64,000 nucleotides of DNA from Apostichopus japonicus (lineage: Eukaryota), in the NCBI RefSeq assembly GCF_037975245.1, contig NC_092565.1, positions 23,338,063 through 23,402,062 of the forward strand, given 5' to 3'. The position numbers and the translations under genes are program-made. The notes below the pieces were generated by a model. The model had not been told where the DNA came from. It saw only the letters and a program-made list of their open reading frames with translations, and did not search any database. Positions 13,908 through 35,133 of the stretch are shown piece by piece (the stretch's first letter is position 1; every line of letters starts with the position of its first letter).

Positions 13908-13989
13908 ATTGTCAACAGCAAGAATCTTTCACTGTTAAGAAAGTGTGCACATGGTAGCATGGCTCTTATATTTACCACTGCCCTGTCAG
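13908..13989 (+). CDS. COX15: COX15 exon 6 (IVNSKNLSLLRKCAHGSMALIFTTALS-)
   Basis: The acceptor is ttttgatag|ATT and the donor is TCAG|GTAAGC (phase 1). It matches human …LRRFAHGTAGLVFLTALSG. Confidence 0.85.
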
Positions 13990-15243
13990 GTAAGCTGCTG
14001 TAAGATTTAATAAGATATTAGGACTGCTCACAAACATACAAAATTGAGATGAAATTGTCACAGAATTTGCCAGATGCTTCATTATATTTTGCATTTATGT
14101 TTCATCCAGTTATTAAAGTATAACTAGAAAATTCAAAACCTTTAAATATTAAAGCTCTTTACTGGCCTAGAATTTTCAAAACTTTACTCATTTGCTACAA
14201 AATGCCAGTAAATCTAGTGGCTATACCAAGTTCTGACTGAATTATAGTACATATTAGTTACGTACTTACGGTAGATGGAGGCATTTAAGAGCAACCCAAT
14301 GATATGTGCTGATACGAGCAGTCGTATGGGAGGCTTACATTAGGAACAGAAATCATGCCGATTCTTTGACTGGCGGTTGTTAGTTGACTTACCATGTGTT
14401 TAAGTTCTTTATGTCTACTGGCAGGAAATTAGCAGTGCCTTTGTTACCCTATTTGCAAATGGTAAAAAGGCCACAGCACTGTAGCCTGAAAATAGCCAAA
14501 ATTTCCTTTAAGTTGGTTGAAAAAGAGATAGTCAGGAATGGCAAACTAAGGTCAAATTTGGGTCTAATTAACACTGATATTTGGGCATAAAATACATAGT
14601 TTGTGCAACAGCAATCACTATAATTATGACTGGCTTTTGCTAAGCTGAAATGTGTATAGCTGGTACAATAAACCATGATTATGTTTATTGGGGAGAAGAA
14701 ATATGACGATACATGGACATGAAAATTCACATGGCAACAATCTCACTATTTTTATTGAGGTCAGGGATCTTGTTTAAGAATAATATGTATTTCCACTGAA
14801 CTGAAAGCACAAAATGAATTCAGCAAACTACTGTACCTTGGATAGTGCAGAATTTTAATGTTACATATATATTTATTTGTGACTTCAAACACAATTTGTA
14901 TACAGAAATTATCATTCAAAGGAGACATAATGAACTAATATTTGCCTTTTTTATTAACCACGCATTATCCAATATTGGTTTTGATTATACCTTTATTACA
15001 CAAACCTAGCTTTTAGTTTCCTATCATCATCAAAATCCCTTGTTTTTGCTGAAATAATTTGTTATGACTACAAAATACCATCAAGTATTAAAGGGACATA
15101 AAGTGCGGGAAAATGTGGCAGAAAACTATTTTTGGGGGAAACAGTCAATGTTGACCACTGGAATGTCCCTTTAAATTGTCAGTAGAATGACAAGTTATAT
15201 TCTCATCTATAAATTCTCCAATCTACCTTCTCTCTTCTCTCAG

Positions 15244-15398
15244 GTGCATTTGTGGCTGGTCTTGATGCCGGTCTCGTCTACAATTCATTTCCAAAAATGG
15301 CTGACAGATGGATTCCATCTGACATCATGAATTTTTCACCAAAATGGAAGAATATATTTGAAAACCCGACCACAGTGCAATTTAATCACAGAATATTG
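15244..15398 (+). CDS. COX15: COX15 exon 7 ([52 protein letters not shown])
   Basis: The acceptor is ctctcag|GT and the donor is TTG|GTAAGT. It is almost identical to human [32 protein letters not shown]…VFENPTMVQFDHRIL. Confidence 0.9.
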
Positions 15399-15699
15399 GT
15401 AAGTGTCATTGGTTCATCCTGACTTCCTGTTCACAACTTTATTGATTTTCCATCGTTTGTCTTGATTTATTCTATTTTGCTTGAGCTTTATTCCATCTGA
15501 CATCTTGAAGTTGTTTTCAATAATGGAAGCACATATCTTCAAATTCATACTGTACAGTAGTATTATTAAAGACGAACAAATGACAAGATTAACTGATCTT
15601 CTACATTATTGATTTAAAATTCATATATAATTTTCTTAATATAACTGTTCCTACAATGAAACAGATGACATTTTAGGCACCTGGTGTATCCTTTACTTT

Positions 15700-16140
15700 A
15701 TGGCCCACTTTTCAAATTCAACCACAGAATGCAGCCAACATAACTTGCTCTTTCTGGCTTTCTTCAACTTGCATTTAATAGTGATGGATGTGTTAAAACC
15801 ACTCACCTTTACCAGATATATTTCCACTTAAGTATTTCATCACCTAGACTACCATCACCTAGACTACCATCACCTAGACTACCATCACCTAGACTACCAT
15901 AGTGAAGCTTTTACAGACCAGACTGTAGCAAATTCAACCAGAGAATGCAGCCTTACATAACTAGCTCTTTCTGGCTTTCTTCAACTTGCATTGATGATGG
16001 ATGTGTTAAGATCACTCACTTTTACAAGATATATTTCCACTTAAGTATTTATCACCTAGACTACCATCACCTAGGCTACCATCACCTAGACTACCATCAC
16101 CTAGACTACCATCACCTAGGCTACCATAGCCTTAGAGCTG
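15700..16140. repeat. About 220-bp tandem duplication in COX15 intron 7; each copy ends in a 15-bp minisatellite (cacctagactaccat)4-5
   Basis: 15706-15900 matches 15931-16130 (…gaatgcagcc..acataact.gctctttctggctttcttcaacttgcatt…atcacctagactaccatcacctag…). Confidence 0.8.
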
Positions 16141-16199
16141 ATATTTTTTATTTGTCTGTCTTTGAAACTATTAACTATTACATATTCATCTTATTTCAG

Positions 16200-16313
16200 G
16201 GAGTGAGTACAGCGAGTGCAGTCACAGCATTGTGGATTCTAGCGAGGAGGGTGCCCTTACCTGCTAGAGCCAGTCTTGCCATGAACTGCATGCTGGGAAT
16301 GGTAGCAGTACAG
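16200..16313 (+). CDS. COX15: COX15 exon 8 (GVSTASAVTALWILARRVPLPARASLAMNCMLGMVAVQ)
   Basis: The acceptor is ttatttcag|GGA and the donor is CAG|GTAATT. It matches human [29 protein letters not shown]…. The ORF-track entry 15945-16490 reads through the upstream intronic minisatellite into this exon. Confidence 0.9.
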
Positions 16314-16798
16314 GTAATTAGGAGATGTTTCTTATTGCTTCTATTTTGGAATGCTTTGTTATTGAAACTTAGCTTGACATTAAAGCGTTATCCCGCACAA
16401 GTGTACCCTTTTTGTGTCTTGTTGGATATAAACAAAGGCAGCTGGATCACCCCATTAAGTTTTTCACCAATTACTTACAATCATTGTTAGACACTGCCAG
16501 TGGCACCACCTTGAAATGGAAATATAATTTAACTTACATCAATATGCTCAAGTTTTTCACAAAAACATGTTTTACATCAAATGCTAAATTCTGCATAAAT
16601 TCCCGAAAAGGCATTTTCAAAGTTTTCCCCTTTTTTGTTTAAATTCAATAGAAACTAATGACAACATTTGACCTAGCAGTACAGTCTTTGTGTCATTATT
16701 ATACAATGTCTTCGAAATTTATGATCTCGTTATTCACTGTCACAGAGTGACAGTAACCGTCGACCCTCTCTGTGAGTGTCCTAGTTGTTGCGAACCAG

Positions 16799-17076
16799 GC
16801 GCGTAGCCAGGAATTTGCCAAGGGAGGGGGGAAAATGTAGGCAAACTATCAGAGCCGCAGATACAGCATTGCAACTATCTAAGCGTAGCCCCACCATGGT
16901 TGGCGTGAAGTGTACAAGAAAATTTTGGCTGAAAATGCCTCCCAGATTGCTGGAAACAGCACTTCCCAGGCCTTGTAAGTTGCATATATATCATAAAAAC
17001 TTTAATAAATTTTTTTAAAATATGCTCAAGGGGGAGCGGCTGCCCCCTTCGCCCCCCCCCCTTGGCTACGCGCCTG
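16799..17076. mobile_element. hAT-like MITE (278 bp) in COX15 intron 8, with terminal inverted repeats CAGGCGCGTAGCC…GGCTACGCGCCTG and an 8-bp TSD ttgcgaac/ttgcaaac
   Basis: Perfect 13-bp TIRs begin with CAG and end with CTG. An imperfect 8-bp direct repeat flanks them (16791-16798 and 17077-17084). The interior is AT-rich and non-coding. It contains the motif ctatctaagcgtagccccaccatggttggcgtgaagtgtaca, which is shared with the element at 31768-32163 and with the repeats at 27100-27610. Confidence 0.6.
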
Positions 17077-17568
17077 TTGCAAACAATCGAAGGTGTTCCC
17101 ATGACCAAAGAAATATTCACCAGCTCAGGACTGATATGCTGGATGTCCCAATTTGTTATAGAGAATTCATTGTGTTATGAAGACCAAGTTCATTATCAGA
17201 ATTAGCCATTTGTACTGTTGTAGCAAGTTTATTTAACTGATATCTGGGTATTAATAGTTTATCATTTGCTGCTGAGTACCTCGCAAATTATCTGAGTTTC
17301 GGACTTTGTGGCTTTATAAAATTTAAGGTAAACAAATCAGATAAACTTCACTCTGCATATACAAGACTCATTAGCCTAGGATTCAAGCCATGCAGAAACT
17401 TATCTCAAAAGCTTAAGATTGCTGTTAGAATTCACACCATCCTGCATTTGAGATGAATCCAAGAAGCCTTCAAGAATCTTATCATGATCTTTTTTCCCCG
17501 CTAAACTAGAAGTAAACCATTTAACATATTTTATTTCCAATACTTACTTTATGAATTTTCTTAAACAG

Positions 17569-17700
17569 ATCACACTTGGCATATCAACATTGCTTCTCTA
17601 TGTACCAACCAGCTTGGCAGCAGCCCACCAGTCTGGCTCCCTCACTTTATTATCTATAGCTCTCTGGTTTGCACATGAGCTCAGGAAAATCCCAAAGTAA
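17569..17700 (+). CDS. COX15: COX15 terminal exon (ITLGISTLLLYVPTSLAAAHQSGSLTLLSIALWFAHELRKIPK*)
   Basis: The acceptor is cttaaacag|ATC and a TAA stop sits at 17698-17700. It matches human VGLGISTLLMYVPTPLAATHQSGSLALLTGALWLMNELRRVPK. Confidence 0.85.
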   Translation: MTLGISTLLLYVPTSLAAAHQSGSLTLLSIALWFAHELRKIPK

Positions 17701-17886
17701 AATAAGTCAAAACATGAAAAGAGATAGAGGGGCTTGCATGGGCGGGGGAGGGGGAAGGGGTGGCTGTTTGAGGAATCAGAAGGGGAGGACTTAATGTATA
17801 ATTCTAGAAGCTCTTAAACAGTTCACATTTTTTTCCTGTGATGAAAATGCTGTAACTTCATTAAACATGTTCCTTATTTATTATTC

Positions 17887-20152: not shown

Positions 20153-20743
20153 CTACATGGGTAATGATTGCATGAAATCCTTCACTGCATCGCCGATCTC
20201 AATTGGAGCATCCTCTTGCAGAAAGTGAAGACCTTTAACCTTGACAACTCTCTGGTATGGCCAGTCTTTTGTCTGCTTTCGCAATCCCGCACTGAAGAAA
20301 CCAGGTTGTCCATCGATAAACATTTTTGGAAAGTCCTTCGACTCGGACAACCATTTGGTATAGGCATCGACTATTTCCACCACATTCTGCGGTCCCGTAT
20401 CACGGAAGGGTATTTGGCGTGGCCATGTTAACGTGGGACGACGCGATTCCCCGACTTCTCTGAAAGGTTCAAGGTACGCATCCATTTCCACTGGATCTAA
20501 CTCTCTCAGGATTGCGTTTGGTAGAAGACGCTCCACAAAGAAGTTCTTCTTGAGGACCATTTCTTCTCCTGCTTCAGATCTCAAAGATCCAAAGATATCT
20601 CTAGAGATATCAGGAAAACTCTTTAAGCTCTTAGCAACTCCAATAACGCCCTCAAAATAGACAACACCTTCCACTTTCTGTTGGTTCTGATGAAGCCAGT
20701 GGAGACCTAAACCTGAGCCCCAATCATGACAGATTATTGTAAT
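20153..20743 (-). CDS. Renilla-luciferase-like protein, copy A, exon 2 (ITIICHDWGSGLGLHW…KGLHFLQEDAPIEIGDAVKDFMQSLPM*)
   Basis: The acceptor cag|ATT is on the minus strand (exon starts at 20743) and a TAG stop is at 20153-20155. The exon carries a catalytic-triad-equivalent Asp in HDWG, Glu in VYFEGV and His in GLHFLQEDAP. These correspond to RLuc D120/E144/H285, with Trp after the Asp. Together with exon 1 it gives a 305-aa protein (RLuc is 311 aa). Confidence 0.85.
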   Translation of the reverse strand: MTIICHDWGSGLGLHWLHQNQQKVEGVVYFEGVIGVAKSLKSFPDISRDIFGSLRSEAGEEMVLKKNFFVERLLPNAILRELDPVEMDAYLEPFREVGESRRPTLTWPRQIPFRDTGPQNVVEIVDAYTKWLSESKDFPKMFIDGQPGFFSAGLRKQTKDWPYQRVVKVKGLHFLQEDAPIEIGDAVKDFMQSLPM

Positions 20744-21537
20744 CTGAAGAAAAAAAATCAAGAAAGAAAGAAAGGTCTTTGGAAGTCTTTTCCTAAACTT
20801 GAAGGTCAGGAACCCTGATTTTGGAGGGGGGGGGGGGGGAGGAGTCAACTGATATAAACTGAGCACTGTTGAAATGGCTGCACCATGTTTGAGTGAAAAT
20901 CTTGGCTGTGAAAACTATTGGGGGGAGGGGACAGGAATAGTCCCCTGGCCACCAACATGTAAAATACTTACAATTGCATTTTGTATAAACATACATGACA
21001 GAAGTTGTGCTATCATTGTTTGAGCTACATTTCCTGGGATTATGTGGTCATTCTAGTGGTAAAGGCTTACACATTGAAATTTTCAGAAATATTGACAAAT
21101 GTCAAAGTAACACCTTAACTATCTCTGTTAAATCTTAACGGTTAACATAACTTCATGTGGCAAAATTAGAACATGAATGCAAAATAAGCCTACCTTGTTA
21201 TCATCAATTGATAAACACATGAGCTTCGAGGTAACAATTGTTAGAAAGAAACTTATCAACATCTGTGATTGTAGAAGCCTACCTGAAGTCTTCGCCTGTA
21301 AAAATTGTTTATTGCTTCTGCACAATTATAAAGTAAATTTGCTGCATAATTATTTAATGTTAATCCCAAGGGCCTTGATACAGATTGGGGGTGGGTGGCA
21401 GAAGGGGGCAGGAGACCAATGTTTAACCAGTCTAGAAAGTGCCACATATGATGGACACACAAGTCTTGTAATCATGGGACTCTAGCCTAGTACAAGCAGT
21501 TCTGTAAGGAGATATGATACCAAAAACAAGTGCATAC

Positions 21538-21864
21538 CTTATTTTTCAGGTTTAAAGATTCAAACCACTTTGAGAGGTATTTGTACTGGTCATCATAGGT
21601 GTACATCAAGTCAGGGATTTTACTCGACCTTCCCATGCCAATCAAATCAGGTGCCAAACAGCGGGCAAACCCTTCTACTCGTGGAATGATATGTCTCCAC
21701 AGATAGGACGATGTCGGATTCCCATGAAGAAATACTGCTGTTCTCGATGACTTTTCTTGTGTTGGGTCGGAGTCATAGTAGCTCATTTCGCCATCTAAGA
21801 TCTTGACCCGTTTGTGTGTTGACCACCATTGGTCTGCCGTAATCACGGGCGTAGAGGAGCTCAT
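21538..21864 (-). CDS. Renilla-luciferase-like / haloalkane dehalogenase-family protein, copy A, exon 1 (MSSSTPVITADQWWSTHKRVKILDGEMSYYDSDPTQEKSSRTAVFLHGNPTSSYLWRHIIPRVEGFARCLAPDLIGMGRSSK…LNLKNK)
   Basis: The ATG is on the minus strand at 21862-21864. A GTATGC donor follows codon 109 (minus 21537-21536). The translation aligns to the N-terminal roughly 110 aa of Renilla reniformis luciferase (…WWARCKQMNVLDSFINYYDSEKHAENAVIFLHGNAASSYLWRHVVPHIEPVARCIIPDLIGMGKSGK…). This includes the halide-stabilising Asn in the HGN motif. Confidence 0.85.
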
Positions 21865-22379
21865 GTGGTTAGCTGATACGAGGACGACATTATTTCGCAA
21901 ATGAGAGGTCAAAACGTTCAACCGAGAAACATGTTGAAGTCGTTCCATGATTCTAATCATTGTGACAAGATGGTTTCCAATGAATGGAGTAGCAATAGGT
22001 AGCAAGAAATGGTTAATCACACCAGTCTGTAAATATGGACTCGGGACTTTGACCTAGTAGTATTGCTAGTTACATGGTTCCGCACACTCCGTAACGTACC
22101 TGCGTACCCTCGAAATCCCAGTAGTAATTTCTTAATGGCTGCTAGCTTCAAGCCGGTTGACATTTTCCCAACAAAAATGAAATGTTGGTGTAACCATAAA
22201 TATAACAGGGCAAAATTCTAACTAAGAAAAAAATAAGGGCACACTTTGAGATCACAAGCATATACAGCTCTGCACAATCCCTGACCTTAGTAGGTCAACC
22301 TTTAGCTGATGTAAGTTACTGAAATAAGTAACATAAACAAAATTTAAAAATATATAATAAATTACAGCGACAATTACAG

Positions 22380-22625
22380 TTGAGTTCGTGTGCATTCCGT
22401 TTTCATTCTGTTTACGAAAAAGTAGCAACATGCAACCTTGACTGGCAGTTTTCAGCCCGCAAATATAATTACCTTATCACCTCCTTTTGCTTCGCCTCCT
22501 TTTCACCTCAAAACACGACGGTCCGGAAAAATGGGATGCGATCCAAAAGTGGGTCGTACAAAAAGTCGCTAGGTCGACGCGAGACTTTTTCAGACGTCGG
22601 AAAATTACAGCTATAGTTTACGGAG
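22380..22625. promoter_or_regulatory. CpG-dense block (many CG dinucleotides: cgacggtccgg…gggtcgtac…gtcgctaggtcgacgcgag…gacgtcgg…cgccgactcgg) in otherwise CpG-poor DNA, about 0.5 kb upstream of luciferase-like copy A
   Basis: The local CpG density is clearly higher than in the flanks. Its position is consistent with a promoter or CpG-island-like element for the minus-strand gene, but it could equally be a young repeat. This is purely compositional. Confidence 0.25.
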
Positions 22626-25600
22626 CTCGCCGACTCGGAGACTTTTTTTTTAAATTATTTTTGTAATATCAAATACATAGTCCAAGCTAGCTCACATTCA
22701 TATACTGAGCATCAATTCTGATTTGTGTGTATCTGGTATATGAAGAGTCGGATCATGGAAGATCATGTGTATACAAGTTTGCGTACCGCTGACATATTAT
22801 ATATAGGCCTATAACAACTACAATTTCAGTGGCTCGCAAATAACATTTACAGCAGATCCAGAATATATATCGTCTATTATATATAATTTACAAAGAGAAG
22901 GATTACGAAGTATTCTAAAGGCATCGGCCAGACCTTACCGTGCACGAGGCAACCGAGCATAACTCTTGACTGCCCGTACCATGTGCCTTTCTCTTTCATA
23001 AAAAAATAAATTTGTGAAAACCCTGCAAAATGAAATCGTTTTTTTGCAAAACGATGATCCAATATTCGCAAACTTTTGTAAAAAAAAAATGTAAAGAAAA
23101 ACTGCCGCACGACTGATGGTGGCCATGGGGGACATACCCCTTTCCCGAATTTCCGCACGCCATTGACAAGTTGTGTTATTTATTCATCGGACTGAGTTAT
23201 AGCTATTTGATCGAATGGAATTGTAACGGAAAGATTATGTTTCGTAATGAAACCTATAAAGCATGCAGCCACATTTCCTCTTCTTTTTATATACTATATA
23301 TGTGTTTACAAGGACACCGAATTTGAGGAATCTATTTTCTCCATGATGTTTTAGTATAAATTTTGTTCTGTTTATTCATTAAAAGGGGATGAGAAGGAGG
23401 CCCCCAATGACAGATATTTGGTTTCTACGCCCGCCCCCCCCCACCACGGACAGCTGCATCCCTCTCCTTTATGGAGAACTGCAGCTGCAAGTAATGTAGG
23501 CTATAGACGCTTATAAATTTCTGTTTATGCAAAGGAGAGCTTTATCGCAATGAAGGTTAAGCCGACTCGTAAATTAACGTAACTATAAACTTGCCTGCTT
23601 GTCAATCAGTGAAAAATCTCTCCTGTTGCTCGGATCTTAAGTACAATTTCGCTACAATCTCTGTACTCTATAACTCATATATACGAACAAATCAACTGCA
23701 TCCTGAACTCGGGATTAATTTATCTTAAAGCGATTTGATGTAGCCTACGTTTTAAACTATTTAGTTGAATTCTTTGAAGTTGTATAAGATCGAAAGAACA
23801 AACAAACAATAGGGAAGTCAATAGAAGTAGAGCCTTATGTGGTTTCTGTATCAGCTATACCAGGGACGGGATTTGTTGTCTGAAGTTGGAGTGGCAAACC
23901 CGGGGAAGAGGTTTCAGGGGAGAGGGATATATGTTTAGATTTGATTAAGCCCTAGCTTATTCCTTGTACTAGTTGTGTATTTGAAAATCGCCCGCCTCCC
24001 CCTCTGTAATCCCACCACTGGACTATGCTGTAATTCTGTGTGGCCCTCCGTATTCGATGCTTATAGCCTGTGCGAATAAAGTACGCCACTAGTGTCGTTA
24101 AAGGTAGTCAGTATAGGCCCCAAATTATAGCACGCTATATATTTGCTAGAAGTTTTCAAACAGTACTTTCCTGGAGGTCTTTACACTCCAAATTGTTCTC
24201 ATACATTTTTAAGGAACACACAAGATGACCTAGTGAGGAAAGTTTCCTCGAAGGTTGTATTAAAAAAAAGTTTGAGAATTTTGACCAAAGGTGACCATAT
24301 TCGAATATCTAGCATATTTGGGGCCAATACAGCATACCTATAAAAGCCGACGCCTCTGTAAGGTTGTCTGCGTTAAAACAGGGTGAAACCTCAAACTTCA
24401 AATGGTGCAATCCGAGGCATATTTAGACTATAAATATTGTCTATAATTAGGTCTATAAACGAAATGTTGTGCTTATACATACTTCTGAATTTTTGTGTTC
24501 AGGTGAAGGGGGGGGGGGTAGATACCCTACACCGTCCACCCCCTGTTGACGTAGATCCGCGACGTCTGCTATATATAGTAACGCAATTTATCAAACTTCG
24601 AAAACCGACTTCCACCTATAAATTGGACGGTCAAATGAGAAAGCAGTTACCATATAATAACATGCCTTGTACATGATAAAGCATCTCATGAGAAAGTTCA
24701 TGTTTGAGCGTCATGTCTGTAACATTTTGTTTATACACGAGGTCATTTTAGGGCATTCCCTTAGCAACCAGTAGTAACCTGTCAAGGAGACAACTTACAA
24801 TACCGATATAGTCTATAATAACACTACTCGTTCTGTACCTCTGTATAACTGTCATGTAACCTTTTATATCTGCATCTACAAATCACCTTAATAAACTTAT
24901 ATTATAGACTATTCTGTTATCTCTCGACACCTGGCAACATTTCGAGGCATTGGAGACTATATAGGAAAGTGTAACTGTATGTGGCACGTACATAACAATA
25001 TTTTGTTTTATAGAGGGAGGGTGGGTGGGTTGGGGTGGGAGGGTGGGTGGAGGACACACATAAGGCCTTTATCATCTTTAAAGGAAAGATCCCTTGAATA
25101 ATCAATTTTGACGATATCGTTCGATGAATTAATTCCATCCTTTATTTTGCCAAATCTTATTACTAAAGTATAGATTTCGGATCATCTCACTCCAAAATCT
25201 CAAAGTAAGTAATCTCTAATTTGCGAAAACTGGGGCATATGAAATTCCTGTGGCGAGAGGCGCGGGGGGGGGGGGGGGGGCAGCCGGCTATTCATCGGGT
25301 ACCTGTCATGCCCAAGGCGGATGATGGGTATCTGTAGATCCATCTCCGTGGTTTGATCATGGTAGTTTACCCCCGCATTCTACCTCAACAGGAAAACAGA
25401 CGACCACAGTACCCCAAACTCCATCACCCCCCCCCCCCAACCCTCACCGAAAACAGTAACAACAGCTTGGTATACGGTAGTTATACGCAATTGCACTCCA
25501 CCAATAGAGTATAGGCTATATAGCAAAACTTTGAAGCACGACTTTCATCGATACTACCATGGGCGGGATTACGGGGGGGCAAGAGGGGGCACCCCCCCAC

Positions 25601-27094
25601 TTTTTCCCAGACCTTAGTTCACTTTTTTGTCGTTTTTGCAGACAAATGTGCACAACCCTAATCGAAATGATTCCCCCACAACAGCTCTATCAAATAAGCC
25701 TATTTGTTTCGATTGTAAGTCGAATTTGTGTTTAACATCGTAACATGTAGCATGCAGAATAACTGGAGCTGGAGCTAGCCACATGGTTCATAGCACAGGT
25801 TACGAATCCTGGAGCTAACACACTAGCGATTCAATTCTGCATGTGATGAATCCGCGGCATGTGCTACAGTGCTAGCTCCAGAAATGTCTCTCTGATTTTC
25901 AACGTTGCTGCTCTACTGAATGCGTTGAATAACTAAATCCAGAGAAACGATTTACGAAAGCCAGATTTGCATATTGGGTATATCAATAATTAAATTCAAC
26001 ACACTGACACATGACACCCCCCCCCCCCCCGTGTCATTCAACAATATGCAATGGCAATGCCGATGTAATTTCTTTACTGCTCGAAATCCTGGAAGGATGC
26101 ATGCAAATCGAATAATGTAAATTACAAATTGGCACTAACACAGTAACACATTAAATCCATTGTTACAGTATACAGCACTCGGCAGTTTCGGTATGGCCGA
26201 TAAAATAATGTGTGGCTTTGAGTTCCTTTTTCGGATCTATTCTCGATGATGAATGGAAACACTTACGTTTGGTCTTGAACTGAATATGGATTGTGTTCAG
26301 AAGCTGTCACGGCTGAGATGAACATGTTTAATCGAATCTACGCTGCAACTTATCCTACCATGGAAAGCTGTTTCCAAAAGCGCTTAGATTTCTTCCAGAC
26401 ACAAAACCTTAGTCAGAGTATGAGCAATGTTGCATTTCGATTTCGCCTCTTTATGACAACTTGATGAATTCGGCTATACATGCGAAAGGAGCTTCTCCTG
26501 CCTTCGCAGATTAAAAACCTACTTGCGAAACACCACAGGTCAAGAACGACTAAATAGCTTAGCTGTGTTGAACATTGAAAGAACCATCGACGAAGACATC
26601 CATAAAGTCGTTAGTCGATTCGCCACACATGAAAGTGTCAGCGGACGTCGTCTAGCCCTCCATTAACAGTAACATTCAAGTATTTATTATGCATTTCTAT
26701 GTTGCCTGATAATCTGGCAATAGTTCAAACATAATGCTGGTACTGCCAGGTAATAATTTTATTTTCAAAATCTCAGCCAGTACTATGAAATGACCCGTAA
26801 ATATTGCTCCATGTTGCACCTAGTCGCATTGTAAAATCAAAAAAGTCACCCGCCTCGACTTCAGTGGCGACGGAACCGGTGGATTTGAGGGGCTTATTCC
26901 CCATGAAAAAAAATGGGGGGTAAATGTATGTTCAGCCCCCAATATTTGCCAAGTGCTCCAAGAAGTGGGGACCGCGGGGAGAATTTCGAAGTGGGTGCTG
27001 AACATATTCTTGATCGGTCCAATGCACAATATAGTAATAATTTTAGGGGGAAAGAACTGTCTAGATGCGATTTATTGTTACCAGAGGTGTCATT

Positions 27095-27700
27095 TTTGCT
27101 GATCTAGGATTTCCTTTTTGCTTAAATTTCGACGCGCCGCGCCAACTTATGATGGTGCACCGCCTAAATAGTGACGTATAAGCTTCAGTTGTACATCACC
27201 ATATAAGTTCTTCTATCCGTCCTCCCTAAATTTACACACGTTCATTACTTGTTTAGATGCAATTTAAAGACTATATGGGTGTTAATTTTACCGATCTAAG
27301 GGTACCTTTCATCGAAAATTTCGACGCTCCTTACCAACCGGAGATGGCCCTCCGCTTAGATAGTGACGTATAACAAAAGTTGTACATCACCATCTGACCA
27401 TATGTTCTACTATCAATCCTCTTCAAATTTTTAAACGATAATTAACTATCTATACAATTGCAGACATGAGATCCATATTTCAAGGATGGGTACATGCAGA
27501 GCACTCGGGAAGTGCCGTTTCCGGCCATCTCGAGGGTTTGTAAAGCCAAAAAAAATTTCTTGTACGCTCCGTGCCAACCGATGGTGGCGCTCCGCTTAGA
27601 TAGTCTTGCTGCCAGGTTTGTCCCACCCCCCCCCCACTTTCACAACGCAAATCCCGCCCCTGGATACTGCTATGGGTCGGTTACATGATAAAGCCTTGCA
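27095..27700. repeat. About 200-bp tandem repeat (about 2.5 units), 360-960 bp upstream of luciferase-like copy B; the units contain the MITE-family internal motif in reverse orientation
   Basis: The units start near 27101, 27301 and 27520. Each contains …ttcgacgc(g/t)cc…ccaac(c/t)(g/t)a(t/g)(a/g)tgg(t/c)(g/c)c(a/t)c(c/t)gc(c/t)taaatagtgacgtata…, the reverse complement of ctatctaagcggagcgccacca..ggttggcgcggagcgt found inside both MITEs. Confidence 0.7.
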
Positions 27701-27974
27701 GCAATTTTACCTAGCTCCTTTAACGTACGGGTACTGTAAAGTTCACGTCGAGGGTGAACTCAACCATTAAGATGTGATATTAAGCCATCTGGATTTTATT
27801 GTAAACAGATAAAGTAGCTTGTGATAAAGTTCATGTTTGCGTGCCATTTATGTCATATTGTATTTATGTATATTTTCATTTTAGGTATAGGTTATCGCTA
27901 AGACGATCGCTTGCTATTTTACGTGATCCGCCACCATCAATCGGCTGTATATCATTATGGCAGTGGCCTGTCAA

Positions 27975-27995
27975 ATAGACAACTAATATATATAT
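27975..27995 (+). promoter_or_regulatory. (TA)n / TATA-like element about 75 bp upstream of the copy B ATG
   Basis: The sequence taatatatatatatatc is at 27977-27993, and tataag is at 28034-28039. There is no transcript evidence. Confidence 0.25.
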
Positions 27996-28061
27996 ATATC
28001 GCCACCTAAGACGACTACCAGTTCTGGGGTTGCTGCTATAAGATCTACATTCGGATAAAAC

Positions 28062-28388
28062 ATGAGTTCTTCTTTGCCGATAATTACTGCAGACCAATGG
28101 TGGTCAACACACAAACGGGTCAAGATCTTAGATGGCGAAATGAGCTACTATGACTCCGATCCAACACAAGAAAAGTCATCGAGAACAGCAGTATTTCTTC
28201 ATGGGAATCCGACATCGTCCTATCTGTGGAGACATATCATTCCACGAGTAGAAGGGTTTGCCCGCTGTTTGGCACCTGATTTGATTGGCATGGGAAGGTC
28301 GAGTAAAATCCCTGACTTGATGTACACCTATGATGACCAGTACAAATACCTCTCAAAGTGGTTTGAATCTTTAAACCTGAAAAACAAG
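28062..28388 (+). CDS. Renilla-luciferase-like protein, copy B, exon 1 (MSSSLPIITADQWWSTHKRVKILDGEMSYYDSDPTQEKSSRTAVFLHGNPTSSYLWRH…LNLKNK)
   Basis: The ATG is at 28062 and the donor AAG|GTAAGT is at 28389. From codon 10 onward the sequence is nucleotide-identical to copy A exon 1 except 2 synonymous positions. The first roughly 27 nt differ (MSSSLPIIT versus MSSSTPVIT). Confidence 0.85.
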
Positions 28389-29370
28389 GTAAGTCAATTT
28401 ATTTTTCTCACGCATGATATCACTTTATCAATATTGAATGTATTAAATATAAATTCTAACAGGTGTACAGAAAATGCTTTCTCTTGAACTATAAGATGCA
28501 CGGAGTAAACATTTACACACACACTAACACACTTGAAATGGACGGTGTTATCAACTAATTTTCGTACATGTTAGTCCATCATTTTATTGACCTATCTTAT
28601 ATAAAAACTTGACCGAAAAAAGTTATCTAAACTGCATGTGAACCACAAGAGCTTCTCGAAGGATGAAATCTAATCAAAATTTTCCTTCATGAAATGTTAA
28701 TTTTCTATAAATAGCCAATGTTATAGAATAGGGGCAACAGGTAAAATACTTTGTGGTGTAACTCCTTGTCATTTAGTGATGTAATTTTATATTCTGCAAA
28801 TATAGTCCAGCCATTTGACTGTCAAGTGTCCGCTTGGGGAAGGGGAGGGAGGGGGAGGGGTTGGAATGTACACCATCCCTCTTTTTTAACCCAACACCAT
28901 AACTAAAAGTAGCTATTAACACAACCTTGCCAGTTAGTCCTAATTTATAACCTAAACATGTTTTGTTTTTTCGAGGATGGTATTTATGGGCACAACATTG
29001 CGTTAAGACGTAAGTTACAGTCTAAATATGTCTCAGAACAGCAGAATATACCATCTAACGCATAAATGCCTTACTTGGAAACCCGATACTCCTAATATGG
29101 GAATCGGCATTACATATTATAAAATATTCCCAATTCTAACTATAAAATGTCGATTATAACCCGTATATTTCCCTTGTGCATTTATAGAGTAATTAACCAT
29201 TGAGTCTGATATGAAAACTTGGTTAACAATTTCAACTCAAAAGTGCATCATGAACAGGTGTTTCTCGCTTTCAATTGTCAAAAATATGGTTTGTTTTTCA
29301 AGATTCTAATGTCCGTATCGTGATCCTCTTCATGAATATTCATATCTGTTATTTCTTTAATTTTATGCAG

Positions 29371-29961
29371 ATTACCATCATTTGCCAAGATTGGGGATCT
29401 GGTCTGGGTTTAAACTGGCTCTATCAGAATCAGGATAAAGTTGAAGCATTGGTCTATTTTGAAGCCATTATTGGGGTTCATAAAAGCCTAGATGATTTCC
29501 CAGTTCTAGCTAGGAGCGCCTTTCAGGGTCTTCGCTCCGATGCTGGGGAAGAAATGGTGTTAAAGAATAACATGTTTGTTGAACAACTACTCCCGATGGG
29601 CGTGGCGCGTAAATTGGACCCGATTGAAATGGAGGCGTACCGAGAACCATACAAGAAGGAAGGTGAGTCTCGACGCCCTACCCTCACTTGGCCACGTGAG
29701 ATACCATTTAGAGACACCGGTCCAAAGAATGTTGTGGATATCGTGGATACGTACGCTAAATGGTTGTCTCAATCAAAGGATTTGCCAAAGTTATTCGTAG
29801 ACAGTGAACCAGGTTTCTTCAGTGCCGAATTGCGGAAAATCAACAAGGATTGGCCGAATCAGAAATCTATGACAGTTAAAGGGATACATTTCCTTCAAGA
29901 GGATGCACCAGTAGAAATCGGTGATGCTGTTAAAGAGCTCATGGCCTCTATCTCCAATTAA
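29371..29961 (+). CDS. Renilla-luciferase-like protein, copy B, exon 2 (ITIICQDWGSGLGLNW…KGIHFLQEDAPVEIGDAVKELMASISN*)
   Basis: The acceptor is ttttatgcag|ATT and a TAA stop is at 29959-29961. The exon is the same length (591 nt) as copy A exon 2 but only about 70% aa identical to it. The catalytic Asp (QDWG), Glu (YFEA) and His (GIHFLQEDAP) are retained. Confidence 0.85.
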   Translation: MTIICQDWGSGLGLNWLYQNQDKVEALVYFEAIIGVHKSLDDFPVLARSAFQGLRSDAGEEMVLKNNMFVEQLLPMGVARKLDPIEMEAYREPYKKEGESRRPTLTWPREIPFRDTGPKNVVDIVDTYAKWLSQSKDLPKLFVDSEPGFFSAELRKINKDWPNQKSMTVKGIHFLQEDAPVEIGDAVKELMASISN

Positions 29962-30989
29962 GAAGAAATCAACGTGTTTCCGCCATTTTGATATTACTGA
30001 ACTTTAATCAGCATTCATTAAATGTATGACCTGTTCGAAATTAAACCAAGAGTACTGCTATGACGTCATCTCCGCGCGATACCTTCAAACAGGGCCCGAG
30101 TTGTAACAGGATAGCAAGCTTAATCGGGACACACATCTATTTAAACGAATGTTTAATTTCGAAGGCAACGGTTGTCGACACACACAGCGTACACAAAAGT
30201 ATTACAATGCGAGAATTTGACAATCTCAGTTTCGTAATATCATATTCAGAGTTCTTAACTTTTTAATATATTGATTCTTGACGATGATATCATACTTTTG
30301 CTAGATGTAATTACTCCACTTCTTCATTAATAGATAACATTAAGAGATCTGTGATATTTATCGTACCTTTAAATTCCCGAACAACTTTACTCTGAAGTTG
30401 CAAAAAAACGCCAATTCGCTAAAAAACCAACATAAGACATATTTTAGCATATGTAAAATGCGTAAGCTTTTAATGTCTTTGTTAATGTGCTCTGAATCGC
30501 AATTGGAAGTTATAAATGTCTCAAAAAGTGGTTGAAATACCTATTTTTATGTTTATTTCTGTTGGCAACGTATACTTATGATTCGGCAACTTAGCTGAAA
30601 AAACTCAAAAGACACAAACAGACACCGTGACGACTAAACATTACTGTGCAAATTATGGACATAGCACAGTGAACCTAAAGTGCCAGTTTCATTTTAGTTA
30701 TTTTAAGCTCAAATTCTATGAATTCAAGTTCGTGTCGGGAGGGAAACAATTATGAGTAGATGCTAAAATCATACTTTTTTGTAAAGTAGAACAGAGCTTG
30801 TGATAAACGTCATGTATGCGTAACATCCGTCACTTTATGTGCACTTACATCGTGGGAGTTTGGACATGATCTACCACTATGATCGGATTTATATAGACCA
30901 ATAACTTTATAGACAATTTCAAGTCAAAGAGATAAATATAGGTCTGGCGGGGGGGGGGGGGGGCTTCTGGCTTGTTTAGATTTACAGGT

Positions 30990-31140
30990 TGCCGGCGGTT
31001 AATAAAGACGAATGGTGTTCTGCACACAAACGAGTCATTGATCTATATGGCGGAATGAACTGCTATGACTTCGATCCAGTCTTACACGATAAAAATCACT
31101 CCAGAACAGTCCGGTTATATTTCCATGAAATCCCGAAATA
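30990..31140 (+). pseudogene. Decayed third copy of luciferase-like exon 1 (…WCSAHKRVIDLYGGMNCYDFDPVLHDKNHSRTVRLYFHEIPK*)
   Basis: The nucleotide stretch aatggtgttctgcacacaaacgagtcattgatctatatggcggaatgaactgctatgacttcgatcc… is clearly homologous to the exon-1 sequence aatggtggtcaacacacaaacgggtcaagatcttagatggcgaaatgagctactatgactccgatcc…. It carries an in-frame stop and lacks the HGN motif. About 250 bp upstream (30760-30850) lies the same promoter-proximal module that is found upstream of copy B. Confidence 0.5.
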
Positions 31141-31767
31141 GATCTACATCTTTCTGAAGAGACTATCATTTTCAGAAAATCGCATCATTAGTTCACAGCA
31201 AGGCGATTTGTACCGTTCTCTGAGAAGGGATAGACTTTCTTATTTTCGTCTCTTACCCATACGTAATTGAAACCGTTTTTTGGACGTTAACAATGAAACG
31301 CCCAAACAAAGGCGGTGGGCCCTAGTACGTATCAGTGTCGGGTTTGATGATTCTGATTCTGACAATGGCTATGGTTATGACTAGGACTACCGGTATATCA
31401 TGACTATGACCACGACCACGGCCACGACCACGACTATGAGTATGACTATGATTATGACTGAAAATATACCAAAACAATCACTCTCTTAGGTCATTTTAGG
31501 TATTCTGTTTTTTTTTTCACGACAATGGTTAACCTTTCGAGAGGATATACTATAATTGTGGTATATCTGGCCACCATATTGCAATTCCTTTACAAATCAA
31601 AACTTTACTACTTCATCGGAGAAATTAGCCATGTGCAATTTGTTATTTCACGCTTCGAAAAGCAACTGGAGGGATTAACCGAAAGCTGCGGCTGGCTGTT
31701 TCAATGTTTAATTAGGGGTTTTGATTCTCTGGAAAGAGTAAAATCTCTAATTATGTGTGTACAAATA

Positions 31768-32163
31768 CAGTGGCGGAGCTAGGGGTATTGGTCAGAGGGG
31801 GCGAGAATTGTCTATAGGGGCGCTTTTGACACTATCTAAGCGGAGCGCCACCACAGGTTGGCGCGGAGCGTACAGAATTTTTTTGAGTAAAGATACTCCC
31901 TAGATCGCCGAAAATGACCCTTTCCGGGCCTTGCTAGTTTGCAGATAAACGAAGAATAAATAGCCGTTAGAGCATTTTGTCAGAAAATTACAGCAAGAAA
32001 ATGTGACAAATGTCAATATTTTTATGAGGAGCGCAATAAAAAAGTCAATAATCGCGAATAAGTAAAAAGTCGTAAAAAGCTGAAAAGGGCGCCAGCAATA
32101 CATTTGAGTCCGTCGGGGGGCATTCGCCCCCCCCCCCCTGACTATATGGACGCTCCGCCACTG
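31768..32163. mobile_element. hAT-like MITE (396 bp), same family, with TIR CAGTGGCGGAGC…GCTCCGCCACTG and a perfect 8-bp TSD tacaaata
   Basis: The TSD tacaaata is at 31760-31767 and again at 32164-32171. There are 12-bp perfect TIRs. The internal sequence ctatctaagcggagcgccaccacaggttggcgcggagcgtacagaattttttt is homologous to the interior of the 16799-17076 element. The ORF-track entries 31525-31782 and 31900-32187 overlap it and are spurious. Confidence 0.65.
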
Positions 32164-33970
32164 TACAAATATTGAAAATCTGAACATGGAGTTATAGCTG
32201 CTGTTGAATCAATAAAAATCAATAAATATATAATTATAAATAAAATTCACATAAACTTTATATAAAATAAAACTTTTTGTTTACTATTGAGAACAAATAG
32301 CTTTAGTCCCAAATTTTGGAAGTTTTTAAAATTATTTTTATTCTTTATTATATAAAATAGACACAAAACGTTGTTTGCATTATATTCTGTACTAGAATCT
32401 CTCCTTTATGCCAGATTGGGTGAAACATGAAGAAAGTTTGAGGCTTGATTTACACACTTGCCAATGTAATTGAATTGCTCTGCTGTTCCACCCCCCCCCC
32501 CCCCGGGCTCTGCCCGGCCCTTCTCTTCCGCCCCCACCTTTTGATAGCTTATTATACCTACCCCATTGCCGCTGGCGCTTAGTGTTCTTTTGACTTCAAA
32601 GAGGGCAAGGTTCGAGAAATCTGGGTCTCATATCCCAACCCCCCCCCCCCCACTTCAAAATGTACTCCGCCTTCAGTGTGACTTACTTTTTCTTGTATAA
32701 GGATTAATTATTGAATTTTAAAGGCAAAATGTACTGCTCAATTGTCATGATGATATCATTCACTCTGCATTCCGAACCATCACCAAATTTCCAAAAAAAT
32801 AATGTCTTGGCCAACAAAAGTCCATGAGGATGTTGCTATGACCTAAGATACAGAGAATGTGTAACAATTTTGTCCAGCTATAAACTTCAGCCACTATATA
32901 GAATATCCAGAAGTTTTGGCTTATCCGACTCGAGTCGAACTTACGCAAATCTGTTCGTCAGCTAAGATATTTGCACCTGCAAAGCGCAGTGCTGCTGAAA
33001 TTGTATGCTTCCTTCAAACCGGTTGAAGGTGCCTTGCTTTGTACCAAAGTACTAATACAACAACAGACAGGATATGCGTAAAGGTTACACAGGCTAGTAC
33101 TAGTATACAGTATCAATTGTTTCATATACCATACCAATTACGATGACACAAAACAAGACTACACTGATATTTTTTGCTCAGATAGTATCAAATCCCCTCA
33201 TATAATTTGAAGTCTGATGCCCAACGTTATTCGGCCTTCCATTGAGTCGAAGAGTAAGAAAGGGTGATCATCTCGTTCGGGAACTTACTTAAACCCAACG
33301 TTAATTAGGCCTATACTTATGCCTACCTCAGTCTGGGTAGGCCTAGTGCTAATTAGTATGACCCTAAGTCACCCTAGTCTAACTTACTAATAATACTAGA
33401 TCTAGCTTAGGCTTGAATTAAGCCGAGCACTTAACGCAGTTCTTTGGCCCAGGCGGAACTTGTAACATTAGGCATTTCAAAGCTAGATAGTATATTTGAA
33501 TGTATGCGTAAAGATGTGAAAACTTTTCCTTGCTTCAACTTCTAAGTTCTAGTTCTTCTGTAGAACTGTTATAATTGAAAACCTTTAGAAGTGTAACTGT
33601 AAATCTATCTCATCCTGGTTGAAGGATAAAACGAAGTCATATAGCAGATGAAAATGTAGTCATCACCTTTGACTCTTAAAAGGGCTTTTGTTCACATTGC
33701 TATATACAGTGTCATTAGAGATCGACAAAATTAGAGCTTGTAAAATTAATGATTGTATACAAACTGTAGAAGATTCTGACTAATGGCCATGCACCTAAAT
33801 CTTAAAATAAAAACTTGTTATTAAAATAATTTCAATATCACATGTAAACCCATAAATTGCAGAACCACTTGTGATCGAATTGGAATCAACTTTTTGATTA
33901 AAAATTACAACAAAGAAAAAAGAGAATGACTTGTAATACAATTTTTGTCCTTCAAATCCTACAGGTTAAA

Positions 33971-34150
33971 ATGAAACTGGCAAGACTGAATTCATCGGTG
34001 CTCCGGAGCCTCCTCGAACATTGCCGAATGGCTTCCTTTGCTTTGAGGTCTATAACTTACAATTCCTTCACAAATAAATCTGCTATGGTAGATGTTGCAG
34101 TAGAGCCTCTGTTATGGATGGTGGAAAAAATAACCAAATACCTCGGACCA
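33971..34150 (+). CDS. ZDHHC16: ZDHHC16-like palmitoyltransferase exon 1 (MKLARLNSSVLRSLLEHCRMASFALRSITYNSFTNKSAMVDVAVEPLLWMVEKITKYLGP)
   Basis: The ATG is at 33971 (an alternative in-frame ATG is at 33926; a possible acceptor ctacag at 33964 may mean a further 5' exon). The donor is CCA|GTGAGT. It matches human ZDHHC16 …KVCLRSLLYNSFGGSDTAVDAAFEPVYWLVDNVIRWFG. Confidence 0.65.
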
Positions 34151-34287
34151 GTGAGTGAATTTACATATTGCATCACCTCGTAGCAGCATGTACTAAGATA
34201 TAATGTTGCAATGACTTAAGATAAAAATGTTGTTCTTATATTTTCTTTTGAAAGCATTTCCATTTTAGTAAGCAATGCTTTCAAATG

Positions 34288-34680
34288 GCTTCAAATTATT
34301 ATGATTATTATTATTAATTACCCCGTTATTTATAAAGCGCATAATCCTAAAGTTCTATGCCCTTTACTTAACCCTGGTCATTGGTAACTTGTCACACCTA
34401 CACACCAAAGTGTGCACAATTCAAACAATCTCTCCTGGGGCACCACAGTGCACTACAGCCATGTGTCCCCTGGGGGACTTCCCATACTGTAGGGTGCAGC
34501 CACAAACCGGCGCACGCAACTATATTTACAAGTCACCTGGTAAGTCCCCATTTATACACCTGGGTGAAGAGAGGCAATGGAGATAAAGTGCCTTGCCCAA
34601 GGACACAACACAATGATCTGGCCAGGCTCGAACCAGTAATCCTTAGATCACAAGTCCACCACAAATACAACTATAATTGA
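34288..34680 (-). mobile_element. tRNA-derived SINE (minus orientation) in ZDHHC16 intron 1
   Basis: The minus-strand reading gives …cttgtgatctaaggattactGGTTCGAGCCtggccagatcattgtgttgtgtccttgggcaaggcactttatctccattgcctc…cacccaggtgtataaatgggg…. It has a B-box-like GGTTCGAGCC and the tgtccttgggcaag core typical of tRNA-derived SINEs. It ends in a (TAA/TTA)n tail at 34290-34320. ORFs 34381-34680 and 34389-34586 are artefacts of it. Confidence 0.55.
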
Positions 34681-35133
34681 TCTTGGGATCTGTACAATAA
34701 ACTGTCTACTTTAAATTTGTAGAAAAGTGAATAAGAATTCTTTCTATTAAAGTCTTGGATATTTCTAATATTGAAAACTTTTTGGGCAAAGGAGAAAGAC
34801 CTTTTTATTGACTAGGCAAAGATATCCTATATTGTATCATGGTTTATCTGAAATTGTTCTTTGAAGTGTTAAATTTCTCAGTTTGCTGTTCTAACATTAG
34901 TTCTCACCCATCAACACAGGTCTTCTTGTTAATCTCAGCCTCTTTTTTTTCCTTTCCAAAGAAAGATTCTTAATAAGTTTATAGCTAATTTTTGTTAAAA
35001 CTCAATTTTTTGATGGGTTTCATATCCTTGTAGAGAACAGTAAATGTCTAAGGCTTCCCTAGGAATTAATGTTTAAATGATTTTACTACTGTACCTGAGA
35101 TAAACACCATTTGGTGTTTTGTTTCATTTTCAG

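Follow-up and report, generated by a model that had tools for sequence, protein, structure and literature searches.

A 64,000-nucleotide stretch of the Apostichopus japonicus genome (contig NC_092565.1, positions 23,338,063–23,402,062; hereafter the window) carries two divergently oriented genes, A and B, for α/β-hydrolases that resemble Renilla luciferase (RLuc). The locus raises the question of whether these are luciferases, dehalogenases or enzymes with another role. We conclude that A and B are probably two functional paralogous metazoan HLD-II genes, most likely encoding dehalogenases, in a presumably non-luminous animal.

Gene Structures and Genomic Context

Both genes are intact, with two exons each, and are flanked by COX15 and a ZDHHC16-like gene, as an earlier reading made without database searches (the sequence-only reading) had proposed. 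Gene A, on the minus strand, comprises an exon 1 core at 21538–21864 (109 codons, MSSSTPVITADQWW...LNLKNK, containing N49), a 794 bp intron at 20744–21537 (donor AAG/gtatgc, acceptor ttcttcag/ATT) and exon 2 at 20153–20743 (196 codons plus stop, ITIICHDWG...QSLPM, containing D116, W117, E140 and H282). Gene B, on the plus strand, comprises exon 1 at 28062–28388 (109 codons, MSSSLPIITADQWW...LNLKNK, with a TAA two codons 5′ of the ATG), a 982 bp intron at 28389–29370 (donor AAG/gtaagt, acceptor ttatgcag/ATT) and exon 2 at 29371–29961 (196 codons plus stop, ITIICQDWG...ASISN). Both introns are phase 0 and GT..AG. The predicted exon 1/exon 2 junction is borne out in transcript data (SRR27871393) of a further species, presumably a holothurian, whose spliced messages have uninterrupted open reading frames across it.

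A length of 305 aa had been proposed for each product. This holds for B, which is 100% identical to the 305 aa entry PIK55482.1/XP_071828611.1 (P0001). The core of gene A also gives a conceptual product of 305 aa (tblastn, 99.5%–100%; database proteins P0002/P0121), but the database entries for this gene (PIK55481.1, XP_071828607.1) start 28–32 codons upstream. A probable 5′ coding extension at 21865–21960 (minus strand) contains in-frame ATGs at 21960 (MIRIMERLQ..., the 337 aa RefSeq model) and 21948 (MERLQ..., the 333 aa GenBank model), and includes an “RLQ..H” motif that sea urchin, brittle star and sea star homologs also have in their N-terminal extensions. The true start of gene A is therefore very probably one of these two ATGs, and A is not simply a 305 aa protein.

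The 3′ part of COX15 (10087–17710, plus strand; end approximate, mapped from locus L002) lies tail-to-tail with gene A. Its exons are recognizable at about 12189–12410 and 13119–13346, its annotated product carries Pfam PF02628 (COX15-CtaA family) and its homologs bear the names COX15 or heme a synthase. The ZDHHC16-like palmitoyltransferase gene (33965–44177, plus strand, oriented as gene B; start approximate, extending past the last exon checked) has a DHHC exon at about 39321–39430 and Pfam PF01529 on its annotated product. Exon peptides of both genes agree with human COX15 and ZDHHC16, and the ZDHHC16 assignment is made from the human sequence; the neighbor identities given by the sequence-only reading stand. 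Its further statement that the pair was “inserted between conserved neighbors” is unsupported: the sequence within 10 kb of the related genes has no COX15 or ZDHHC16 exon in sea urchins, in a sea star or in an acorn worm.

The pair is real but not new. Both genes are already annotated as “coelenterazine h 2-monooxygenase-like,” RLuc-like genes of non-luminous echinoderms have been described (PMC5413902, PMC12059646), and a luciferase-like phylogeny that includes the A. japonicus copies has been published (PMC11310086, Extended Data Fig. 5B, Supplementary Note S2). Duplications are on record in every echinoderm class but sea stars (PMC11310086). Three small extras are a gene-conversion tract in exon 1, a relic of a third exon 1, and an intron position and head-to-head layout in common with sea urchins.

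Fold and Catalytic Residues

A phmmer search of the PDB places both products in the proposed family, with E values of 6.8e-127 for AncHLD-RLuc, about 1e-94 for RLuc8 (over residues 7–300) and about 1e-74 for LinB. The AF2 model of B (pLDDT 93.8) superposes in Foldseek with TM scores of 0.95 on AncHLD-RLuc (6g75), 0.92 on RLuc8 and 0.88–0.90 on LinB structures. Identity is 46%–47% to RLuc8 and 57% to AncHLD-RLuc; both align over nearly their full length and share the N-terminal “xWW...YYDS.” The products have the α/β-hydrolase core and helical cap, and Pfam Abhydrolase_1/6 is recorded on them. A and B are HLD-II family members with the canonical core-plus-cap fold.

As had been claimed, all five catalytic residues are retained on alignment: N49, D116, W117, E140 and H282 in both proteins correspond to RLuc N53, D120, W121, E144 and H285. 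D116 (nucleophile), H282 (base) and E140 (acid after β6) form the HLD-II triad and are invariant columns in a 45-sequence alignment, and N49 (HGN) and W117 (DWG) supply the halide-stabilizing Asn and Trp. The same triad and halide site occur in the bacterial enzymes LinB, DhaA and DmbA. On the curated NCBIfam haloalkane-dehalogenase equivalog NF002938, A and B reach 321 and 329 bits against a cut-off of 241; RLuc itself reaches 305 bits, so these scores show family membership rather than activity, in agreement with the earlier caution that sequence alone cannot part luciferase from dehalogenase. Identity to the closest environmental bacterial homologs is about 50%–53%. In contrast to bacterial HLD-II enzymes, the animal proteins have an ∼35-residue N-terminal extension, their genes contain spliceosomal introns, and F261-F262 takes the place of I-L.

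Selection and Probable Origin of the Pair

Both genes are under purifying selection, with exon 2 pN/pS of 0.117/0.88 between A and its A-like counterpart and 0.174/0.90 between B and its B-like counterpart. The intron falls between ...NLKNK and ITIIC(H/Q)DWG in A. japonicus and between ...NLPEK and VSIVCHDWG in Lytechinus; in sea urchins, as here, it is phase 0 and lies just 5′ of “xIxCHDWG.” Small clusters of local duplicates are also common to both groups, with sea-urchin head-to-head pairs at two loci (L004, L010). The sea cucumber genes differ in their genomic neighborhood and in lacking the second sea-urchin intron. Because they share intron position and head-to-head layout, the pair and the sea-urchin clusters probably come from one lineage, and we infer, rather than show, the ancestry of the head-to-head arrangement. 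An inverted duplication would have produced A and B before the split from the second, presumably holothurian, species.

In a neighbor-joining tree the holothurian clade falls outside all other animal homologs. This position is at odds with simple orthology to the sea-urchin genes. We attribute it to a long branch, since the holothurian proteins are 54%–58% identical to other ambulacrarian homologs, which are 65%–68% identical among themselves.

B appears to be the more altered copy. A retains the N-terminal extension of the family, which is missing in B and in sea-urchin XP_794218. The residue before the nucleophile in B is Gln (H115Q), a state seen in 2 of 38 sequences and in one catalytically dead paralog, His being otherwise near-invariant. 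Together with D162S (RLuc numbering), these lineage-specific changes suggest that A and B may have subfunctionalized.

Active-Site Residues and Probable Chemistry

Residue criteria for luciferase activity are available from one preprint with a small enzyme set (bioRxiv 10.1101/2025.09.13.676034). Luciferase-active enzymes there have H142, S145, small residues (Val-Val) at 146–147, aromatic W153/W156, F261-F262 and no bulky Phe after D162, such a Phe being typical of poor luciferases; W153 is important for RLuc8. At the corresponding RLuc positions A and B have Y142, G/A145, VI/II146–147, L153 and F156, and both keep the bulky Phe, following D162 in A and Ser in B. Neither protein thus has the feature set of Renilla-type luciferases, and the differences from RLuc (H142Y, S145G/A, W153L, W156F, and an extra residue and Phe after D162) fall among the L9-loop/α4 residues that tune luciferase activity. 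Y142 and A145 are the exact states of bacterial HLD-II enzymes. Among luciferase-associated features, the F261-F262 dyad, F181 and P220 are still present in both proteins. The V146-V147 rule is broken by AfLuc itself.

Echinoderm relatives provide the closest functional comparisons. DspA of Strongylocentrotus purpuratus (Fortova et al., 2013, cited in PMC5413902) and the S. purpuratus and Lytechinus genes are, like A and B, echinozoan HLD-II genes of non-luminous hosts with an intact pentad. DspA is a dehalogenase without light emission, and a sea-star extract is negative (PMC5413902). Gly145 is common to A, DspA and XP_794218; identity to the sea-urchin proteins is only 52%–55%, however, and the sea cucumber Y142/L153 contrast with His and Trp in sea urchins. 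The brittle-star proteins AfLuc and DafA are likewise echinoderm paralogs that arose by local duplication. AfLuc is a true luciferase of a luminous host, and DafA is a dehalogenase with light output about 10^4-fold below that of AfLuc (PMC12059646). Unlike A and B, both carry H142 and S145, and the Amphiura proteins examined, at about 52% identity, have H142, S145 and W153.

The dehalogenase-like residue replacements, considered together with the lack of light emission from tested homologs of non-luminous echinoderms (PMC5413902), make hydrolytic dehalogenation the likeliest activity of A and B, a chemistry assigned here by family. In an SN2 step Asp116 would attack the carbon that bears the halogen and yield an alkyl-enzyme ester, with the leaving halide held by Asn49 and Trp117. 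A water molecule activated by His282, itself polarized by Glu140, would then hydrolyze the ester. Coelenterazine oxidation would be a trace side activity at most, and the predicted phenotype is that of DafA, a dehalogenase with trace luciferase activity. The best structural match to the model, AncHLD-RLuc, is an ancestral-like bifunctional enzyme and counts against a purely dehalogenase reading. Enzymatic activity, substrates and localization of both products are as we infer them.

A less likely account, which we nonetheless take seriously, is that the holothurian pair has moved to a non-haloalkane substrate or role on the HLD scaffold, with B diverged from A and with a physiological reaction other than classical dehalogenation or luminescence. 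The ambulacrarian homologs diverge most in the holothurian clade, the pocket changes Y142, G/A145 and L153 are clade specific, the B lineage has acquired Gln before the nucleophile and lost the N-terminal extension, and animal HLDs have no known natural substrate (PMC11310086, Note S2). Against this, purifying selection has kept the whole halide-binding and catalytic pentad in place, and the bacterial-type Y142/A145 argue for ordinary dehalogenase chemistry.

It is very unlikely that A, B or both are efficient coelenterazine luciferases, and the label “candidate bioluminescence genes” is not sustained. Identity and fold similarity to RLuc8, the intact RLuc pentad, the conservation of F261-F262 and P220 in both proteins and of D162 in A, and the independent origin of a luciferase from the same family in brittle stars (PMC12059646) are outweighed by the replacement of H142, S145, W153 and V146-V147 and by the bulky Phe. 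The tested homologs of non-luminous echinoderms are dark (PMC5413902), and only one of six tested A. filiformis paralogs is an efficient luciferase. The literature searched yielded no paper calling A. japonicus luminous. We take it to be a shallow-water, non-luminous species, which weighs in the same direction. Some holothurians are luminous and no luciferase is known for them, so members of the HLD-II family may serve as luciferases in some species of the class.

Exon 1 Gene Conversion, Spacer and a Third-Copy Relic

The spacer between the divergent genes (21961–28061) contains dispersed repeat copies at 27086–27604 and no open reading frame longer than 93 aa. Its length between the starts is ∼6.1 kb in the window, against the 6.2 kb described earlier; in assembly MRZV01000214.1 it is ∼11.3 kb, because of a 5.2 kb insertion there (site 27016–27023 in the window). 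Co-regulation of A and B through the common region is a conjecture, unsupported by a spacer that is long, repeat-rich and different in length by 5.2 kb between assemblies.

A decayed third exon 1 lies ∼1 kb 3′ of B in the same orientation (30989–31153, plus strand), with a tblastn E of 5e-6 in a search of the window. Its identity to residues 5–56 is 40%, the HGNP motif is gone, and a stop comes after the relic, for which no remnant of an exon 2 was found. A third copy was thus probably once present.

About 300 bp of exon 1 has been homogenized between A and B by gene conversion. The tract spans 21542–21837 (minus strand) in A, nucleotides 28–323 of the coding sequence in 305 aa numbering, and 28089–28384 (plus strand) in B. 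It has one mismatch in 296 nt (99.7% identity), compared with 67% identity in exon 2, and the chance of at least 295 matches in 296 at the exon 2 level is ∼2e-50. Outside the tract, the first 27 nt differ at eight sites, and the flanking sequences do not align. Conversion is probably ongoing. That the pair or its near-identical exon 1 is an artifact (bacterial contamination, assembly duplication or pseudogenes) has a negligible chance of being correct: the family is thought to have reached animals by horizontal transfer from bacteria, and a short-read contig (P0122) is chimeric, joining the A 5′ end to the B intron, so the exon 1 repeat does confuse assemblers, but A and B alike have GT..AG introns in the position used in sea urchins, open reading frames with low pN/pS, animal genes on both sides and the N-terminal “ADxWW...YYDS” typical of animal members and missing in most bacterial ones, and the same exon 1 pattern is present in two independent assemblies that are 98%–99% identical to each other.

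Two divergent genes of the haloalkane dehalogenase family

The locus holds two head-to-head, two-exon genes for α/β-hydrolases of haloalkane dehalogenase (HLD) class II, here called A (minus strand) and B (plus strand). Listing the ORFs and reading both strands directly places the exons of B at 28062–28388 and 29371–29961 and those of A at 21864–21538 and 20743–20153, confirming the divergent pair proposed by the sequence-only reading. By direct reading, each gene has a single phase 0 intron, running from AAG/gtaagt to ttatgcag/ATT in B and from AAG/gtatgc to ttcttcag/ATT in A. The spliced products are 305 amino acids apiece and share 80% identity over their full length.

Both genes are already annotated. 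Against a collection of 5.8 billion proteins, B returns a 100% match of 305 amino acids, named [quoted passage not shown] and cluster look-up gives accessions PIK55482.1 and XP_071828611.1 for B, and PIK55481.1 (333 amino acids) and XP_071828607.1 (337 amino acids, “coelenterazine h 2-monooxygenase-like”) for A. The pair is also present in another A. japonicus assembly (GCA_002754855.1, on MRZV01000214.1) and on a chromosome-scale record of 24.5 Mb. Identity between the window and MRZV01000214.1 is 98%–99%, with numerous small indels, and the two thus represent different assemblies or haplotypes.

Renilla luciferase (RLuc)-like genes have been described in non-luminous echinoderms, with dehalogenase function proposed as retained (PMC5413902). 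The Amphiura filiformis enzymes AfLuc and DafA have been characterized and the patchy distribution of the family mapped (PMC12059646). A published luciferase-like phylogeny takes in A. japonicus (PMC11310086, Extended Data Fig. 5B, Note S2), and the same work reports duplication of these genes in every echinoderm lineage but sea stars. Literature searches for work devoted to the sea cucumber genes, or to the biochemistry of holothurian luciferase, turned up nothing beyond citations of a book chapter from 2024. The pair is therefore a correct re-discovery, with novelty not supported, and since GenBank/RefSeq and the literature already cover genes, family, and echinoderm-wide duplication, it has little importance beyond bookkeeping. 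The field-wide question is the in vivo role of animal HLDs; the sea cucumber pair is compact and differs in its active-site residues, and it could conveniently join the enzyme panels under way for brittle-star and sea-urchin proteins.

Fold, catalytic residues, and constraint

The assignment to the RLuc/HLD-II family is right. In phmmer searches of all PDB chains, hits include AncHLD-RLuc (6.8e-127) and RLuc8 (∼1e-94, query residues 7–300), with LinB and other HLD-II enzymes at ∼1e-74. The AF2 model of B, computed from an alignment of 45 sequences (pLDDT 93.8), superposes with TM scores of 0.95 on 6g75, 0.92 on RLuc8, and 0.88–0.90 on LinB. The NCBIfam haloalkane dehalogenase equivalog NF002938 (cut-off 241 bits) scores A at 321 and B at 329 bits; this is a statement of family membership and does not distinguish activity, because RLuc itself, used as a control, passes at 305 bits.

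The catalytic pentad is complete in both proteins. N49, D116, W117, E140, and H282 (numbered on the 305-residue form) align with N53, D120, W121, E144, and H285 of RLuc, so all five residues named in the sequence-only reading are in place. The wild-type RLuc sequence used differs from RLuc8 at the eight known RLuc8 substitutions only.

A and B are functional animal genes. Comparison of exon 2 with two transcripts from run SRR27871393, presumably from a second holothurian species, gives pN/pS of 0.117/0.88 for A against the A-like transcript and 0.174/0.90 for B against the B-like transcript, low ratios that indicate purifying selection on exon 2 of both genes. These transcripts, from a single sequencing run, have uninterrupted ORFs and UTRs, and they supply the sole transcript support for the exon 1/exon 2 junction. 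Four members of the Logan cluster (P0005 and P0122–P0124) all contain intron sequence and are thus genomic or unspliced.

The start of A

The predicted length of 305 residues holds for B, which has an exact database match, but probably not for A, where database models begin at in-frame ATGs farther upstream (21960 or 21948, minus strand), adding 32 or 28 codons. The extension (21865–21960; MIRIMERLQHVSRLNVLTSHL...) carries an “RLQ..H” motif that recurs where homologs from sea urchins, brittle stars, sea stars, and amphioxus are extended at the N terminus, and an extension with this motif is common to most echinoderm homologs. This conservation suggests that the longer form of A is likely to be the real one; the extension may be a targeting peptide. 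B has no extension, with a TAA two codons 5′ of its ATG, and S. purpuratus XP_794218 likewise lacks one.

Active-site residues point to probable dehalogenation

Mechanistic papers, including bioRxiv 10.1101/2025.09.13.676034, separate luciferase-active members from ordinary HLDs at H142, S145, the V146-V147 dyad, the aromatic pair W153 and W156, D162, and the F261-F262 dyad, and by the lack of a bulky Phe directly after D162 (RLuc numbering). In our alignment, H142, S145, and W153 are found in nearly all other deuterostome homologs, whereas A, B, and their two SRR27871393 relatives differ. In A and B, position 142 is Tyr, as in bacterial HLD-II enzymes; S145 is Gly in A, as reported for the S. 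purpuratus enzyme DspA, and Ala in B, as in LinB; the V146-V147 dyad is Val-Ile in A and Ile-Ile in B; W153 is Leu and W156 is Phe in both. D162 is kept in A and is Ser in B. The Phe after position 162 is kept in both proteins, as are F261-F262, F181, and P220.

Published biochemistry runs in the same direction. DspA is a dehalogenase without light emission, and sea-star extract gives no light (PMC5413902), while DafA is a dehalogenase whose light is ∼10^4-fold weaker than that of AfLuc (PMC12059646). Considered with the residue states, these data make hydrolytic dehalogenation the most probable predicted activity of A and B, with luciferase activity expected to be trace at most. The suggestion that the pair are candidate bioluminescence genes is accordingly not supported, given the changes at H142, S145, V146-V147, and W153 and the dark DspA and sea-star preparations; the caution on function that went with it was appropriate.

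The residue before the nucleophile also varies. Of 38 aligned family members, 35 have His here (HDWG), and Gln occurs in the B-type paralogs of both holothurian-type species (the B protein and its second-species counterpart, P0003).

Origin of the sea cucumber genes

In a neighbor-joining tree (289 columns, 200 bootstraps), the four holothurian-type sequences group with 100% support outside all other animal homologs. This basal position hints at an independent bacterial transfer into holothurians, which we reject: the intron position is that of sea urchins, the N-terminal segment is of animal type, and identity to bacterial HLDs (50%–53%) is no higher than that of other animal proteins. The holothurian-type sequences are 54%–58% identical to other ambulacrarian homologs, which are 65%–68% identical among themselves. 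We read this pattern, together with the shared intron position, as suggesting a fast-evolving echinozoan branch rather than a separate bacterial acquisition. The A. japonicus intron coincides with the first intron of Lytechinus, between ...NLPEK and VSIVCHDWG; the HLD genes of Patiria and Ptychodera have no introns.

Gene conversion within exon 1

A single long inverted repeat occurs in the region, pairing 21535–21866 with 28060–28391 at 97% identity. Within exon 1, 21542–21837 (minus) and 28089–28384 (plus), CDS nucleotides 28–323, differ at 1 of 296 positions. The first 27 nucleotides of exon 1 hold eight differences, the flanks are unalignable, and identity in exon 2 is 66.8%, where synonymous sites are saturated (pS 0.84, versus a dS of ∼0.10 for exon 1). 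At exon 2 identity, the probability of at least 295 matches in 296 is ∼2e-50, and the other A. japonicus assembly has the same pattern of near-identical exon 1 and diverged exon 2. The ∼300-bp tract is a recent gene conversion between inverted paralogs.

An inverted repeat bounded by the exon limits, which would hint at an RNA-mediated event, was rejected: the near-perfect stretch falls within exon 1 (nucleotides 28–323), and the first 27 nucleotides are ordinarily diverged.

The duplication itself is older than the split between A. japonicus and the second species, because by exon 2 distance A pairs with the A-like transcript, and B shares the QDWG, YFEA, and NMFVEQ states with the B-like transcript. 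Conversion is a tidy textbook example here and a caution for short-read assembly and for family phylogenies, as concerted evolution can mimic lineage-specific duplication. One 1810-bp Logan short-read contig, P0122, joins the 5′ extension and exon 1 of A to the intron of B and is evidently an assembly chimera through the identical tract.

A broader scenario, which we think improbable, is that the sea cucumber lineage would keep only a fast-evolving HLD branch with a remodeled active site (Y142, G/A145, L153), in which the roles of A (with N-terminal extension) and B (without it, and with Gln before the nucleophile) are split while conversion restricted to exon 1, as observed in A. japonicus, ties their N-terminal halves together. 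If true, the branch could be specific for new substrates, or it could be the luciferase source of luminous deep-sea holothurians.

Neighboring genes and the spacer

A plus-strand COX15-CtaA gene lies tail-to-tail with A, its end near 17.7 kb, and a DHHC palmitoyltransferase gene (plus strand) starts near 33.97 kb. Searches with a 101-residue COX15 peptide returned short fragments only, and confirmed the COX15 family; the exon peptides of the ZDHHC16-like DHHC gene match human ZDHHC16. COX15 and ZDHHC16 exons are absent within 10 kb of the HLD genes of Patiria, Lytechinus (two loci), S. purpuratus, and Ptychodera, so the position is not common to these species. An “insertion” of the pair between COX15 and ZDHHC16, as the sequence-only reading had it, is not supported.

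Two large tandem arrays, at 39547–40100 (16 nt × 35) and 40640–41156 (47 nt × 11), follow directly after the DHHC exon of this gene and are apparently intronic. The first gives rise to spurious Pro/Thr/Lys-rich ORFs of 209–216 residues and a strong local dip in GC skew.

The spacer between A and B measures 6.1 kb in the window versus ∼11.3 kb in MRZV01000214.1, nearly doubled there by a 5.2-kb insertion (locus L001, 3750–8976) absent from the window at 27016–27023. The insertion has no Ns and several ORFs of 80–178 residues, features suggesting that it is probably a transposable element. Co-regulation through a shared 6.2-kb upstream region finds no sequence support in the form of a shared promoter, and the spacer bears repeats and varies in length between assemblies. 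A dispersed repeat of ∼50–96 nt, probably a small mobile element, occurs in several copies at 27086–27604, 5′ of B.

On the plus strand 1 kb 3′ of B, at 30989–31153, lies a third HLD exon 1 that survives as a relic (40% identity to residues 5–56, E = 5e-6). It is decayed, its HGNP motif is gone, and it terminates at a stop codon; no trace of an accompanying exon 2 was found. An inverted copy of the dispersed repeat, 87% complementary, lies 3′ of the relic at 31831–31884.

Related loci in other species

Two loci in Lytechinus variegatus and one in S. purpuratus hold HLD/luciferase-like clusters of at least three genes, head-to-head pairs included. The Lytechinus genes have three exons, in contrast to two in sea cucumber, their first intron sharing the position of the single sea cucumber intron. 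More speculatively, sea urchins and sea cucumbers could have inherited the head-to-head layout from a common ancestor, gene conversion having since obscured orthology. In Ptychodera flava, an intron-less paralog (P0043; locus L005, 14181–15245) lies tail-to-tail with an intact one. Its nucleophile Asp is replaced by Ala and its catalytic His by Leu, substitutions that would make it probably a catalytically dead family member.
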